Below, one piece after another: positions 39,520 to 48,358 of a stretch of DNA of 64,000 nt. Position numbers and translations under genes: made by a program. Position 1 is the first letter of the stretch, and the number at the start of each line of letters is the position of its first letter. Source of the stretch: Candidatus Limnocylindrales bacterium (GTDB lineage Bacteria > Chloroflexota > Limnocylindria > Limnocylindrales > CSP1-4); the NCBI GenBank assembly GCA_038239115.1, contig JBBSFD010000001.1:51399-115398 (forward strand), read 5' to 3'. Below the pieces are notes generated by a model that saw nothing but the letters and a program-made list of their open reading frames with translations, searched no databases and had not been told where the DNA came from.

Positions 39520-39924
39520 TCAGCCCCGGGCCCGGACGCGGTCGGGCGTGATCTCGAAGATCTCCCGTTCGCCGGTCGAGCGCCAGTAGGCCCGGCCGTT
39601 GTAGCGCTGGGACAGCTTGTTGATGAAGGCCAGCCCGTCGTCGTCGCGGATGGCCGTGACCCGGCCGCTGATCGACAGGACCCGGCCGGCATTGGCCGGG
39701 TCGGCGACCGAGATCGCGACCTGCGGCCGGGCCCGGATGTTGCGGCCCTTGTAGGAGCCCTTGGGCGAGCTCGTCAGGACATGCTCGCCGTCATAGTCGA
39801 CCCAGACCAGGTGGCTGACCAGCGAGCCGTCGCCGCCCGTTGTCGTCAGGTGGGCCAGGGCCGTGGTCGTGAGCAGGTCGACCACCGACGGGGGAATCCG
39901 GGCGGGCTGGGCATTGGCGCTCAT
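39520..39924 (-). CDS. PPOX-class F420-dependent enzyme / pyridoxamine 5'-phosphate oxidase-like
   Basis: 134-aa split-barrel protein (LAHLTTTGGDGSLVSHLVWVDYDGEHV). Confidence 0.7.
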   Translation of the reverse strand: MSANAQPARIPPSVVDLLTTTALAHLTTTGGDGSLVSHLVWVDYDGEHVLTSSPKGSYKGRNIRARPQVAISVADPANAGRVLSISGRVTAIRDDDGLAFINKLSQRYNGRAYWRSTGEREIFEITPDRVRARG

Positions 39925-39997: not shown

Positions 39998-40939
39998 TCA
40001 GGCGAGGAGCGGTTTCACCTCGGAGATGAACCGTTCGATCGTCTCGACATCATGGGGGGCCGGCTGCTCCGAGATCACCGTGCCGAAGCCCAGCGCGACG
40101 TATGGCCGGAGCCGGTCGGCGATTTGCTCGGGCGAGCCATTCCAGAACGTGTCGTCGTCCTCGACGTCCGACCAGGGCGTCCGGTTGTGCTCGAGCGCTG
40201 CGTGCATCACCCGTTCGGCATCGGCCTGGCTGTCCCGGATCGTCAGCTTCACCCCGAGCGTGAACTCGATCTCGGAGATGTCCCGGCCGACCGTGTCGCA
40301 GTGGCCCTTGAGCACGTCGACCTTGTGGGCGATGAACTCGGGCGTACCCATGGCATTCCACATGTCGGCGTAGCGGGCCACCGTCCGGAGCGTCTTCTTC
40401 TCGCCGCTGCCGCCGATCATGATCGGCAGGTGGGCCTGGATCGGCGCCGGCTGATGGCGCAGGTCGTTGAAGGCGTAGTGGCCGCCCTCGGACGTGACCG
40501 ACCTGCCATCGAGCAGGGGACGGATCGCCGCGACCGATTCGTCGAGCCAGTCCAGGCGCTGGCCGAAGCCGGACCCGAAGTCGATGCCGTGGGCCAGGTG
40601 CTCCGGCTCCATCCAGGCTCCGCCAATGCCCAGGATCGCCCGGCCGTTGCTGATGTGATCGAGGGTGGCGGCCGTCTTGGCTACGAGGCCCGGGTTGCGG
40701 AACGTGTTCGCCCCGACGAGCAGGCCCAGCCGGGTCCGCTTGGTGGCCATCGCCCAGGCCGCCAGCGTCGACCAGCCCTCGAAGATCGGCTGGTACGGGT
40801 CGCCGAAGATCGCGTAGAGGTGATCCCACGCCCAGAGGTGGTCGTAGCCGAGCTCGTCGACGCGTCGGGCCGTATCGAGCATCTCCGGCCAGCTCACCGA
40901 CTGGCTCCAGGGCAGGATTCCTAGCTTCAGGTCGGGCAT
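39998..40939 (-). CDS. LLM-class F420-dependent oxidoreductase (luciferase-like monooxygenase family)
   Basis: LKLGILPW N-terminus, GRAILGIGGAWMEPEH motif, TIM-barrel LLM family; a GC-rich hairpin overlaps the stop codon. Confidence 0.8.
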   Translation of the reverse strand: MPDLKLGILPWSQSVSWPEMLDTARRVDELGYDHLWAWDHLYAIFGDPYQPIFEGWSTLAAWAMATKRTRLGLLVGANTFRNPGLVAKTAATLDHISNGRAILGIGGAWMEPEHLAHGIDFGSGFGQRLDWLDESVAAIRPLLDGRSVTSEGGHYAFNDLRHQPAPIQAHLPIMIGGSGEKKTLRTVARYADMWNAMGTPEFIAHKVDVLKGHCDTVGRDISEIEFTLGVKLTIRDSQADAERVMHAALEHNRTPWSDVEDDDTFWNGSPEQIADRLRPYVALGFGTVISEQPAPHDVETIERFISEVKPLLA

Positions 40940-41068
40940 CTCGACACGATCTCCGTTGGGCGGGCTGGGCGGTCAGTATCGCCGATCGTGGCGCCGGACT
41001 CGGGCTCGGGCCGGGAGCCTCGCCCATTGGGGCCCGGGCGTCGGCGAGTCCCCTGACCCTAGGCCTCG

Positions 41069-41237
41069 CGATTCCGCGTGCATGGTCACTGGCTAGTGAG
41101 GGACGCCCTTAGCCTACGAAACGCCCGCCTCGGCTCCCCGATTCGCGCATGGCTCGAGCTCAAGCCGCAGTCGGCCCCGCCAAACCCTGGTCTGGGGCCT
41201 GGGCCTTGTGCTCGCCGCGTCCATGCACGCGGAATCG
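41069..41237. repeat. perfect 17-bp inverted repeat (CGATTCCGCGTGCATGG / CCATGCACGCGGAATCG) bracketing 135 bp of non-coding DNA
   Basis: Arms at 41069-41085 and 41221-41237, verified against the codon positions of overlapping track ORFs; lies in the 385-bp gap between the LLM oxidoreductase and a small upstream gene. Confidence 0.5.
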
Positions 41238-41324
41238 ATTGAGCGAAGGCCCAGGCCGAGGGTCGCGCCACCGAACCCCGAGCCGCCCTCGTCGCGGAAC
41301 GAGGACCTCGCCACGGAACGAGAG

Positions 41325-41603
41325 TCAGGCGTTATCCAGCTCGCGCGAGATCGCCCGCAGGATGAACCGGGCCGCCTCGGCGCTCTTGCCGCCGAGCTTC
41401 TGGCCGTCGTCCTGTTCGAGGGCGCGGCCCAGGTCGCCCAGCATCAGGTCGAGGGTCGGGGTGCGGACCAGGGTGCCTGCTGCAAAGGCCGCCTCGAGGC
41501 CGGCTGCGGCGGTTCGGGCGTTGTCGACGGCATGGCCCTTGGCCTCCATCGCCTCGCGAAACGCCAAGCGTGCCGCGTCGGCCGCCGGCCCGCTGCTGGC
41601 CAC
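41325..41603 (-). CDS. hypothetical small alpha-helical protein (92 aa)
   Basis: GTG start; high GC3; co-directional and 20 bp downstream of the RimJ-like GNAT gene. Confidence 0.35.
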   Translation of the reverse strand: MASSGPAADAARLAFREAMEAKGHAVDNARTAAAGLEAAFAAGTLVRTPTLDLMLGDLGRALEQDDGQKLGGKSAEAARFILRAISRELDNA

Positions 41604-41622
41604 GGTCAGCTCATCCCCACGG

Positions 41623-42300
41623 TCAGCCGATCCGCTGGATCGTGGGAGCGTCGACCGGGCGGCCCGTCGCCGGGTCGGTGAGCGGCGACTCGTCCGCGCC
41701 GGGATCAGCCACGGCGCCCGACACGCCAGCGGGAATGGCCGCCTGCATCGCCCGCCAGTCGCTGTCGAGGATGCTCATCTCGACCTCGTCCCACCAGCGG
41801 TCGTCGCGCCGGATCGCCTCCCGGGACCGGCCCTCGATGATGAAGCCGGCCCGCAGGTAGGCCCGAATCGCCCGCTCGTTGAAGGCGAACACGCTCAAGC
41901 CGATCCGATGCAGCCGCAGCCGCTCGAACGCGTGCTCGAGCATCAGCCGGGTGGCTTCGGTGCCATAGCCCTTGCCCCAGGCTTCCTTCTCGCCGATCGT
42001 GATGTGGAACAGGGCCGAGCCGTTCTCGCCGTCGAGCTGGCTGAAGGCGCACGTCCCGAGCAGCCGATCCGAGGTCCGCTCGTGGATCGCCATGGCCAGC
42101 GAATCGGAGCCCAGGACCCGGGCATGGAAGAAGCGCTCGATCTCGGGCCGGGCCATCGGCCCTTCCTGGTAACGGGTCAGGCGGGACACCTCGGGGTCGG
42201 CGTACCAGCGCATGAACGCGGCCAGGTTGCCGGGCACGTGTCGCTTCAGGACGACCCGGTCGCCCACCAGACGGTCGGGGAACCAGCTGCGGTGGAGCAT
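41623..42300 (-). CDS. GNAT family N-acetyltransferase (RimJ/RimL-like)
   Basis: C-terminal 225 aa of track ORF 41623..44544; HITIGEKEAWGKGYGTEATRLMLEHAFERLRLHRIGLSVFAFNERAIRAYLRAGF acetyltransferase core. Confidence 0.75.
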   Translation of the reverse strand: MLHRSWFPDRLVGDRVVLKRHVPGNLAAFMRWYADPEVSRLTRYQEGPMARPEIERFFHARVLGSDSLAMAIHERTSDRLLGTCAFSQLDGENGSALFHITIGEKEAWGKGYGTEATRLMLEHAFERLRLHRIGLSVFAFNERAIRAYLRAGFIIEGRSREAIRRDDRWWDEVEMSILDSDWRAMQAAIPAGVSGAVADPGADESPLTDPATGRPVDAPTIQRIG

Positions 42301-45629: not shown

Positions 45630-46871
45630 GTGGTGAGCCCTCTTTCCGGCGAGGCCGACAAGGTCGCCGCCCTGCGCCAGGCCCTGCCCGCCACCTCGGC
45701 CGGGATCTACCTCAACACGGGCACATGCGGGCCGCTGCCGGCCGAGACGGCCGCGGCGATGGCCGAGCTGGCCGACTGGGAGCTGCGCCTCGGCCGGGCC
45801 TCGCCCGACACCTACTACGACGTCCTGCAACGGATGGAGGAGGCCCGCGCCTCGGTCGCGGCGATCGTCGGCGCGGACATCCGGGACATGGCCCTGACCC
45901 ATGCCGCGACCGAGGCGATGAATGTGGCCACCTGGGGGATCGATTGGCGGTCGGGTGACCGGGCGGTCAGCGCTCGCCGGTTCGAGCACGCCGGCGGGCT
46001 GGCCGCCCTGTACAGCGTGCGCGATCGATTCGGGATCGAGCTCGACCTGGTCGACATCGGTGACGGTGATCCGGGCCGCGCCCTCGAGGCGTTCGACCGG
46101 GCGATCCGGCCCGGCACGCGCCTGGTCAGCCTGTCCCACGTGTCGCACGCCACCGGGGCCGTCCTGCCGATCGCCGAGATCGCCCGGCTGGCCCATGAAC
46201 GGGGCGCGCTCTTGGCGGTCGACGGGGCCCAGGCCGTCGGCGCGATCCCGGTCGACGTCGCCGGCCTGGGGGTCGACCTGTATGCGATTGCCGGCCAGAA
46301 ATGGCTCATGGGACCCGAGGGCACGGCCGCCCTGTACGTCGCGCCGGCGGCGCTCGAGCGGGTCCGGCCGGCCTATGCCTCGTTCTGGTCGCTCGAGGAG
46401 CACGACCTCGAGGGCTTGGCCCGGCCCTGGCCGAACGCTCGTCGCTTCGAGGGCACGAGCGGGGTGAACCACGGCCTGGTGGTTGGGTTTGCCCGAAGCT
46501 GTGGCTGGCTGTCGATGTACGTCGGGCTGGAGTGGGCCAACCAGCGCACGGCCCGGCTGGCCCGGCAGACGGCCGAGCGGCTGGCCGCGATCCCGGGCGT
46601 GACCCTGATCACGCCGACCTCGACCATGGCCGGGCTGGTCGTATTCAGCCTGGCCGGCTGGCCGGCCGAGACGATCGTGGACGAGCTGGGCGCCCGGATC
46701 TTCGTGATCAGCCGAGCCATCAAGGACTTCGACGCGGTCCGTTTCTCGGTCGCCTGGTTCAACACCGAGGCCGAGCTGGAGCGGACCCTCGAGCTGGTGG
46801 CCGAGCTGGCCCGACACACGCCCGAATCGATGCCCGCCCGGCGGACCCTCAACGTCCTCGAGGGAGGATGA
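45630..46871 (+). CDS. class V aminotransferase / cysteine desulfurase-like PLP enzyme
   Basis: GTG start; SLSHVSHATGAVLPI and AIAGQKWLMGPEG (PLP-lysine region); divergent from the rhodanese gene with a 20-bp gap. Confidence 0.8.
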   Translation: MVSPLSGEADKVAALRQALPATSAGIYLNTGTCGPLPAETAAAMAELADWELRLGRASPDTYYDVLQRMEEARASVAAIVGADIRDMALTHAATEAMNVATWGIDWRSGDRAVSARRFEHAGGLAALYSVRDRFGIELDLVDIGDGDPGRALEAFDRAIRPGTRLVSLSHVSHATGAVLPIAEIARLAHERGALLAVDGAQAVGAIPVDVAGLGVDLYAIAGQKWLMGPEGTAALYVAPAALERVRPAYASFWSLEEHDLEGLARPWPNARRFEGTSGVNHGLVVGFARSCGWLSMYVGLEWANQRTARLARQTAERLAAIPGVTLITPTSTMAGLVVFSLAGWPAETIVDELGARIFVISRAIKDFDAVRFSVAWFNTEAELERTLELVAELARHTPESMPARRTLNVLEGG

Positions 46872-47263
46872 GCAGCCAGCCGCCGCTGCGCCGACGGTCC
46901 GAAGTCCAGGTTCGCTGGCGCCAGTTCCGCAATCCACCCCGGCCGATCCTGCGTGCCGTCCTGAGCTCGCTCAGCGTGGCGAGCCTGCTCGGCCTTGTGT
47001 ATCTGGTCTACGACGTCCTGCTCAGCCGGGGCGCCCACCTGCCCGGCGGCGACCTGCGGACGCTGGCTGTGCTGGTCTTCGTCCTGGTCGTGCTCGTCTC
47101 GGGCAGCCTGCTGACCTACCTCGTCGTACCCCAGCCGACCGGTTCGGGCAACGTCCGTCGGCGCAGCCGCTGGAGCGCGGCCCTGGGCCTGTTTGCGGCG
47201 GTCCCGATCGCCTACCTCGTCCTGGTCGTGGAAGGCCAGATCCTGCGGCCCCTGCTGGGTTGA
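46868..47263 (+). CDS. small membrane protein (131 aa, 3 TM helices)
   Basis: ATGA overlap with the aminotransferase stop; hydrophobic helices. Confidence 0.4.
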   Translation: MSSQPPLRRRSEVQVRWRQFRNPPRPILRAVLSSLSVASLLGLVYLVYDVLLSRGAHLPGGDLRTLAVLVFVLVVLVSGSLLTYLVVPQPTGSGNVRRRSRWSAALGLFAAVPIAYLVLVVEGQILRPLLG

Positions 47264-47820
47264 CCGAGCGCCCCGGCTTCAAGGCTGTGGTGCGCTCGGG
47301 CAACACCAACGCAGTGGTCGTGCTCAACTGGCATAGTCCTTTCGTACTCTTCCGCGCTACCCTGCACTGGATATCATCCGGGGCGGATCGCCTCGCAGGG
47401 ATCCACGCGCTGAGGTTCTTTGTGTCCGAAGAACAGCATCTCGCCCTGCCCCATCTGTATGGGGCACCCGCCTACTCGCGCCCACCGCGCGTGGTCGAGC
47501 AGGTGGCTCGGCCGTTCGACCCGGACGAGCTGCCAATCGAGGCGGATCGTACCGACCAGGACGCGCTCGCTCTGGCCGAGCTGGCCGGCAATAGCTGGGC
47601 GCCCGCGGTCGAGCCGACGCCCAAGGCCCACAAGCGGGTCCGCCTCGGGCGGGCCGCGCGCAATGCGGCCCCCTCCGACCAGGCGAAGGCCGTGGCCGTT
47701 TCCGTCGGCGTGGCCGCCGCGCCGGCCGGCCGGGAGGATCCGAACGAGCAGCCCAGCCTCGAAGGACGGCCGTTCCGGCTGCGTAGCCTGGGCCGGATCT
47801 TCGGCAGCGATCAGAAATAG
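47260..47820 (+). CDS. hypothetical protein
   Basis: TTG start overlapping the preceding stop; high GC3 supports coding; no family. Confidence 0.35.
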   Translation: MTERPGFKAVVRSGNTNAVVVLNWHSPFVLFRATLHWISSGADRLAGIHALRFFVSEEQHLALPHLYGAPAYSRPPRVVEQVARPFDPDELPIEADRTDQDALALAELAGNSWAPAVEPTPKAHKRVRLGRAARNAAPSDQAKAVAVSVGVAAAPAGREDPNEQPSLEGRPFRLRSLGRIFGSDQK

Positions 47821-47899: not shown

Positions 47900-48358
47900 A
47901 TGACGGGCATGGCCCGCCCACGGCACAGCGCCCCTGCCAGCGACGAGACTCCGTTCGATCCTGAACACGCCCTCCGGATCGGCCAGGCGGCCGAGCTGCT
48001 GGGCGTGGGCATCGACACTCTGCGCCGCTGGGAAGCCACCAGGAAGCTGCGGGTCATCCGCACGCCTGGCGGCCAGCGGATCGTGCCGATCCTCGAGGTG
48101 AGCCGTCTGCTGGGAGAACGCCGCCGGGGCACGCCCGACCGGCCGATCGTGGCCCAGTCCGCCCGCAACCGCTTTGCCGGGATCGTGACCCGGGTCGAGC
48201 GAGATGGGGTCGCGGCCGTGGTCGAGGTCATGGCCGGGCCGCACCGGCTGGTCAGCCTGATGACCGCGGAGGCGGTCGACGAGCTGTGCCTGGCTGTTGG
48301 CCAGGAGGTCGTGTGCGTGGTCAAGTCGACCAACGTGATCGTCGAGATCCCACGCTGA
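47900..48358 (+). CDS. excisionase/MerR-type HTH fused to a TOBE (molybdate/oxyanion-binding, Mop-like) domain
   Basis: HTH_17-like AAELLGVGIDTLRRWEATRKL; C-terminal TOBE RNRFAGIVTRVERDGVAAVVEVMAGPHRLVSLMTAEAVDELCLAVGQEVVCVVKSTNVIV. Confidence 0.65.
   Translation: MTGMARPRHSAPASDETPFDPEHALRIGQAAELLGVGIDTLRRWEATRKLRVIRTPGGQRIVPILEVSRLLGERRRGTPDRPIVAQSARNRFAGIVTRVERDGVAAVVEVMAGPHRLVSLMTAEAVDELCLAVGQEVVCVVKSTNVIVEIPR

Follow-up and report, generated by a model that had tools for sequence, protein, structure and literature searches.

The question raised by this locus is why an intergenic region should contain a long, perfect and widely spaced inverted repeat. In the window, that is, the whole stretch of 64,000 nucleotides analysed here, CGATTCCGCGTGCATGG occurs at positions 41069-41085 of the plus strand, and its exact reverse complement occurs at 41221-41237 after a spacer of 135 nt. 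The pair, already noted in the preliminary description, was recovered by reading of the sequence, by a repeat finder and by pattern search, and no other perfect spaced inverted repeat in the window reaches 16 nt. The expected number of perfect 17-mer pairs with arms 20-600 nt apart, estimated in 150 first-order Markov simulations of 64 kb, is 0.013 per 64-kb sequence. Chance coincidence is improbable, as the preliminary description held, yet this number is not overwhelming by itself. The decisive evidence is conservation: the same arms are carried by ten independent assemblies of related Limnocylindrales. Pattern search of the window yielded no close match to the 17-mer outside the pair, the next best site having three mismatches, which is the chance level.

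Two other inverted repeats were noted in the window. A perfect 15-bp repeat with a 40-nt spacer (45848-45862 and 45903-45917) lies inside a class-V aminotransferase gene (45630-46871); about 0.39 repeats of this kind are expected per window by chance. A 16-nt repeat with 94% identity (46882 and 47155) lies in the region 46872-47262, between the aminotransferase gene and an ORF at 47260-47820. It was considered as a second element and rejected, as it sits within an ORF-like stretch, apparently an unannotated small membrane-protein ORF, and is probably coding.

The 17-bp pair is located, as originally described, in a 385-bp gap between a gene encoding a small protein (the small gene below) and the gene of a luciferase-like oxidoreductase (the LLM gene below). 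The neighbouring genes are on the minus strand, called the gene strand here, and an ATP-dependent DNA ligase gene is transcribed divergently. In the order of transcription, the features are as follows.

About 41623-42300, minus strand: GNAT acetyltransferase gene
41325-41603, minus strand: the small gene, conserved hypothetical, 92 aa, directly upstream of the element on the gene strand
40940-41324, 385 bp: the gap holding the element
41287-41322, minus strand: two tandem 17-nt hairpin units right after the stop codon of the small gene, with loops TTCCG(C/T)G
40975-40980, minus strand: -10-like hexamer GATACT of the LLM gene, predicted from conservation, downstream of the element
40950-40954, minus strand: Shine-Dalgarno box GGAGA of the LLM gene, downstream of the element
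39998-40939, minus strand: the LLM gene, luciferase-like oxidoreductase of the F420 class, downstream of the element (Bac_luciferase, 4.3e-49)
39520-39924, minus strand: gene of a PPOX-class F420 enzyme
Minus strand, last in this order, after the PPOX-class enzyme: opu-type ABC transporter

The best NCBIfam match of the LLM gene product is the F420-dependent LLM class family TIGR03560, with 226 bits, slightly below the cut-off of 231.4. For the 92-aa protein, 6262 homologues were found (E<=0.001), but it belongs to no Pfam or NCBIfam family; in close relatives its gene is also preceded by the GNAT acetyltransferase gene and the divergent DNA ligase gene. The loop motif TTCCG(C/T)G of the two small hairpins recurs in the outer half of the repeat arm, and a CGTTCC motif is present at the same spot in L106 and also in L107, which has no element. 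No transposase, recombinase or nearby regulator genes were found within 10 kb on either side of the element; the closest regulator is a MerR-TOBE protein encoded at 47900-48358.

Comparison of the upstream regions of the LLM gene in 54 distinct relatives demonstrated, in 43 of them, a -10-like hexamer (TAGACT, TACACT, GATACT or TACCGT) 30-45 nt before the ATG, accompanied by a Shine-Dalgarno box. This holds with the element and without it; a clear -35 box was not apparent in the 54 regions. The LLM gene thus probably has a promoter of its own, downstream of the element and independent of its presence.

Alignment of left arms with reverse-complemented right arms revealed longer, imperfect arms of about 35 nt each, with the 17-bp repeat at their conserved core, bounding an element of about 200 bp (approximately 41055-41264). 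Beyond the core, whose conserved part is 14-17 nt long, the arms remain similar for about 20 nt on the outer side and about 12 nt on the inner side. The outward consensus is c.GGcCTTg.g.C.atCGATTCCGCGTGCATGG, the inward consensus is tCGc.GCGAGC, and the arm in short form reads TTCCGCGTGCATGG. Arm positions 6-7 form a tolerant centre; elsewhere the sequence is conserved in both arms. Neither arm is self-complementary, and there is no GTAG or CGTC tag at the ends. The form of the element found in the window is called type I below; its parts, read along the gene strand, are as follows.

41238-41264: outer extension of the small-gene-side arm, GACCCTCGGCCTGGGCCTTCGCTCAAT on the gene strand, carrying the family-wide GGyCTTg box
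41221-41237: core arm of the small-gene side, CCATGCACGCGGAATCG on the plus strand and CGATTCCGCGTGCATGG on the gene strand, identical in L001, L002, L084, L086-L089 and L090
41086-41220: interior of 135 bp, non-coding and fast-evolving
41208-41220, minus strand: sub-terminal block ACGCGGCGAGCAC inside the small-gene-side arm, conserved in every type I copy
41137-41161, minus strand: central block GAGC..GCRCGAATC, conserved across lineages
41139-41152, plus strand: degenerate third arm-like copy CGATTCGCGCATGG within the central block
41086-41102, minus strand: sub-terminal block CCCTCACTAGCCAGTGA inside the LLM-side arm, common to L084, L034 and L106
41069-41085: core arm of the LLM side, CGATTCCGCGTGCATGG on the plus strand, with 0/17 differences from L084
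41055-41068: outer extension of the LLM-side arm, CGAGGCCTAGGGTC on the gene strand, complementary to 41238-41264

An outer flank pairs better with the opposite flank of its own element than with the flanks of other elements: in 5 of 7 cases the own partner ranks first (permutation p=0.008). The element is non-coding, because single-base indels separate near-identical strains; these break the ORFs that cross it, such as 41078-41242 on the plus strand, and a coding function was rejected.

The arms and the interior evolve at different rates. In L001 and L002, which are near-identical strains, both arms are intact, whereas the interior has accumulated 5-6 substitutions and three single-base indels. 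Between L084 and the window, whose small proteins are 96% identical, the arms have 0/34 differences, the interior 35%, and the immediate flanks about 58%. The probability that the arms remain unchanged at the rate of the interior is about 3.5e-7. After the small gene, the arms are perfect or have one to three changes also in L086-L089, L106, L034, L045 and L124/125. Several copies (L034, L045, L106, L090) contain uncompensated breaks in the core. Outside the three conserved blocks, the interiors of different lineages are nearly unalignable: their gapped identity is 55-62%, and that of shuffled sequences is 50+-4%.

The length of the element is conserved better than its interior. From core to core, the type I copies of five lineages span 190-191 bp; the span is 168-169 bp for the window clade and 118 bp for L045. 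The arm distance, measured from centre to centre, is constant within these classes (171, 149 and 98 bp), and the classes differ by roughly whole helical turns. The window clade is shorter than the 190-194 bp seen elsewhere by about 22 bp, and L045 by about 73 bp, corresponding to roughly two and seven turns.

The distribution of the element is patchy. A type I copy follows the small gene in the window, L001, L002, L084, L086-L089, L034, L045, L106 and L124/125. Among 80 species-level genomes having the small gene, type I was found only in L034 and L045. Short "empty" spacers were observed in L085, L107, L060 and L065, and the first two of these are close relatives. In relatives where the gap measures 17-110 bp there is no element, and both the gene order and the LLM promoter are retained. 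The findings on the 17-mer itself are mixed: it does occur outside the window, in some relatives, and is missing from others with identical gene order. In L086-L089 the element is situated between the small gene and a convergent gene of the LacI family, and in L045 it precedes a gene of the MerR family. In all cases it lies after the 3' end of a gene or beside a tRNA gene.

The distance between the small gene and the LLM gene varies among relatives from 17 bp to more than 2 kb, and the contents of the spacers are unrelated. This spacer is a hot spot of variation (L003-L082; e.g. L045 731-1561, L008, L048, L068, L067, L064, L057, L071, L105). Depending on the genome, it holds a full gene of the MerR family, ORFs or remnants of the C-terminal domain of this protein only, a (CCCGT)n microsatellite, or other short repeat units. 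In L105 it contains another, unrelated inverted-repeat element, ATATCGACCCGATC... The possibility that the element of the window is a decayed gene was considered and rejected, as a tblastn search with the MerR-like protein of L045 against the window gap gave no match.

A type I copy was also found at an unrelated locus, upstream of the tRNA-Val(tac) gene and a LemA gene in L090. Loci L108-L113, whose LemA proteins are 91-94% identical to that of L090, lack the element and have other tandem repeats in the spacer. The spacer between tRNA-Leu(gag) and tRNA-Val(tac) contains two to three tandem units, of about 130 nt in L110 (2333-2666) and in L111-L113 and of about 75 nt in L108 (2349-2541); the same spacer holds the type I element in L090.

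L090 was the single match of a metagenome pattern scan, which is not a census and is incomplete, because it missed L001, L002 and L087. A profile search of about 107 loci, roughly 0.8-0.9 Mb of related DNA, found no copies beyond these two loci, and the 64-kb window of the source genome contains one copy. As only two loci are known, the word "dispersed" applies to the element on the strength of a single out-of-context copy. No match to the element was found in plasmids by blastn. In IMG/VR viral contigs, searches with the exact 17-mer and with degenerate arm patterns produced only solitary chance matches in unrelated, often AT-rich or coding contexts, and never a second arm.

A sister form, type II, was found at the same site. 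In L083, type I is replaced, between the same two flanking junctions, by a segment with the inverted repeats GCTCGCTGCATGGGCAT / ATGCCCATCCAGCGAGC, and L083 and its type I counterpart L084 encode an identical small protein. The arms of type II differ from those of type I and are again self-complementary: GCTCGCTGCATGAGCATTCC; in L124 they are perfect over 30 bp. In the latter locus, type II directly follows a decayed type I copy, in tandem. Type II is also present in L126, with arms of at least 19 bp, and as a deletion relic in L095-L104. The frame CTTGACC-N14-TGCATG is common to the two types. The N14 middle of the arm differs between them, yet it is matched on both arms within each element. 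The core-to-core length of type II is 191-194 bp. Together, the two types have a length of 190-194 bp in eight lineages (type I in L034, L087, L090, L106 and L124; type II in L083, L124 and L126).

Standard pairs are formed by 76% of arm cells of both types, compared to 68% in shuffles and 25-44% with slid partners. In 40 cells both sides have changed with the pairing kept, compared to 18.7+-3.2 in shuffles (0/500 reach this value); these 40 cells derive from few events, namely the split of the types, L124 and L045. In L124 the inner stem GGTCGCTGTGAGC/GCTCACAGCGACC has become perfect through paired changes. The window copy is one member of a small group of related elements with inverted repeats in Limnocylindrales.

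Our tentative reading, to which we assign a probability of roughly 0.45, is that these elements form a new, low-copy, non-autonomous family of foldback repeats, mobile or selfish, similar to MITEs, ERIC and Correia repeats. One trans-acting protein, presumably a transposase or a recombinase encoded elsewhere, would recognise the same sequence at both ends, and hence the arms would be retained, with the interior largely free to drift. Copies would be gained, lost, swapped and stacked in a permissive spacer. In the window genome, the element would have landed in the variable spacer between the stop codon of the small gene and the promoter of the LLM gene. Read-through transcripts of the small gene would contain a long hairpin, by which they could be blocked or destabilised; such effects on neighbours would be a by-product.

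The preliminary description had listed a MITE-like element among the possible explanations, and of its three suggestions this one has the best support. The element consists of terminal inverted repeats of about 35 nt around a short segment, within the 50-500 bp range, without a transposase gene. It is present or absent at orthologous sites, as illustrated by the empty sites and by the swap between L083 and L084, it has a copy at an unrelated locus in L090, and it has a sister type. On the other hand, no target-site duplication was seen: no direct repeat flanks the plausible termini of the copies in the window, L084 and L090. The ends of these copies are placed only approximately, since no empty site from a close enough relative can be aligned over the junction. 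Neither the genes within 10 kb on either side nor plasmids or viral contigs yielded an insertion sequence with matching ends. The probability is kept at this level because of the missing duplication, at termini that are themselves uncertain, the missing partner transposase, and the single copy in the 64 kb of the source genome that were covered. Besides, local recombination instead of transposition could account for the presence of the two types at the very same junctions in L083 and L084.

Prokaryotic MITEs are 50-500 bp long, occupy intergenic and 3'-end positions, cluster and insert into one another, and their transcripts form hairpins that are cleaved by RNase III or act as terminators (PMC10969869). 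Like Correia/NEMIS of Neisseria, ERIC/IRU of enterobacteria and RUP, BOX and SPRITE of pneumococcus, the element of the window is a short non-coding unit bounded by inverted repeats. It shares with Correia-, ERIC- and RUP-type MITEs the intergenic location, often at gene 3' ends, the patchy occurrence at orthologous sites, the clustering and the predicted long-hairpin transcripts (PMC10969869). Unlike these, it is known from only two loci, conservation is strongest inside the arm and not at its tip, an overall length kept near 190 bp goes together with a drifting interior, and two arm types share the insertion frame and the site.

REP units occur in tens to hundreds of copies, with an associated RAYT transposase, and REPINs consist of two inverted units forming one long hairpin. 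Each REP unit is itself a short hairpin of 20-40 nt tagged GTAG or CGTC (PMC3733652). The element resembles the REP, BIME and REPIN group as an intergenic palindromic repeat without visible target-site duplications, often at the ends of transcription units. However, its arms are not self-palindromic, its ends are untagged, and about 0.9 Mb of related DNA yielded no further copies. On these features of hairpin, tag and copy number, the REP/REPIN identity was rejected.

A possible, although unlikely, alternative to the mobile foldback family is that the element acts as RNA. Transcription would either run into it from the small gene, making it part of the 3' UTR of that gene, or yield a separate RNA of about 190 nt. 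The transcript would form a long hairpin, closed by the 17-bp helix, that works as a terminator or insulator, as a substrate of RNase III, or as a small RNA. Folding of the minus-strand transcript had been proposed in the preliminary description, and the predicted structure is indeed very stable, much more so than shuffles (-117.9 kcal/mol, z=-5.2). The survival of arm complementarity through changes on both sides across the family and the perfected inner stem of L124 agree with this alternative. So do the length of about 190-194 nt kept despite diverged interiors, the conserved central motif, and the constant position after gene 3' ends or beside a tRNA gene.

However, conservation is highest in the sequence of the helix and lowest in the interior, which is the opposite of most RNA families. 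The covariation term of RNAalifold is near zero, and the interior helices are not shared. Mismatches between the arms do not point to either strand: the gene strand has 13 that are compatible with G-U pairing and the other strand 14, and 60 are transversions. The core breaks in L034, L045, L106 and L090 are uncompensated, and close relatives manage without the element. A consensus scan of 40800-41700 found no intrinsic terminator (a short GC-rich hairpin with a U-tract) on either strand; the second arm is followed by CGAGGCC, with no T run. In a search against Rfam 15, including 6S RNA, riboswitches and ribozymes, the best matches in the window had 14-19 bits, compared to gathering scores of 50-68, and in six other loci carrying the element only the tRNA was matched. 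Similarly to 6S RNA, the element has a size of about 190 nt, a long closing helix and partly rod-like folds. In contrast to 6S RNA, it has no Rfam 6S match, no conserved central bubble was seen, it is absent from close relatives, and the sequence of the helix is conserved rather than its shape.

It may also be asked whether the units of about 190 bp are under selection as such, given the identity of the arms, the fixed length and the central motif. They would then be new structured-RNA genes, or sites of a trans-acting recombinase or looping protein that operates genome-wide (a "global inverton"). A purely neutral relic would not predict the fixed length, the conserved central motif and the shared junctions of L083 and L084. 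For these three reasons we keep this explanation alive, as an unlikely one.

An improbable explanation is a pair of protein-binding or recombination sites on DNA, either an inverton, the recombinase of which would be encoded elsewhere, or a pair brought together in a loop by a DNA-binding protein. Invertons, such as fimS of E. coli and the invertible polysaccharide promoters of Bacteroides, have perfect inverted repeats of 15-30 bp around 130-190 bp and are intergenic. The geometry of the element is similar, with perfect inverted repeats of 17-30 bp around 135-157 bp in an intergenic region, about 75 bp upstream of the predicted promoter. Sequence conservation in both arms around a tolerant centre, and the class-specific arm distances differing by roughly whole helical turns, also fit protein binding. 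The element may resemble fimS and the Bacteroides promoters also in the vicinity of a promoter and in arms conserved as sequence.

However, unlike invertons, the interior has only one orientation relative to the small gene in all assemblies of the small-gene locus, which represent about seven independent lineages, and for no pair of interiors does the inverted alignment beat the direct one. There is no invertase, integrase or regulator gene near the element or co-varying with it. A consensus scan found no sigma-70-like promoter in the interior, and the predicted promoter of the LLM gene is present with or without the element. In L086-L089, where the element is flanked by two convergent genes, a switchable promoter would have nothing to drive. 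As the assemblies examined contained neither both orientations nor an adjacent recombinase with an internal promoter, identification as an inverton is not supported by them.

It is highly improbable that the arms are operator half-sites or the base of a 5'-UTR stem controlling the LLM oxidoreductase gene, which were the other two suggestions of the preliminary description. What speaks for this is position only: the arm lies 130 bp, and its outer end 115 bp, upstream of the LLM start codon. However, a stem in the LLM 5' UTR is not supported, as the predicted -10-like hexamer and the Shine-Dalgarno box lie downstream of the element, an arrangement supported by the 43 of 54 distinct relatives. 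As for looping between operators, no regulator travels with the element, and many relatives retain the gene order and the promoter without it. The element also occurs away from the LLM gene, namely between convergent genes (L086-L089), upstream of a tRNA gene (L090), and before the MerR-family gene (L045). A gene-specific device is inconsistent with such a variety of contexts: tandem genes in the window, convergent genes, and the promoter region of a tRNA gene.

Finally, a palindrome that is neutral or due to chance, without any property being maintained, would not have a negligible expectation, 0.013 per window, once many windows are scanned. It is practically excluded, because the arms are conserved across relatives, in independent assemblies and at two loci, and their identity to those of L084 would itself be a rare accident.

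To our knowledge, Limnocylindrales are abundant soil Chloroflexota with no cultured representatives. A literature search on repeats, MITEs and mobile-element families of Limnocylindria and Chloroflexi found nothing specific. The element family is a marker of recent genome change: at a single hot spot it is present or absent, one type is exchanged for the other, and copies stand in tandem. For annotation, it is a caution that a striking perfect inverted repeat upstream of a gene need not be its regulator. Should the constraints on the length and on the arms prove functional, this soil phylum, so far uncultured, would have in the family a new system based on RNA or on recombination.
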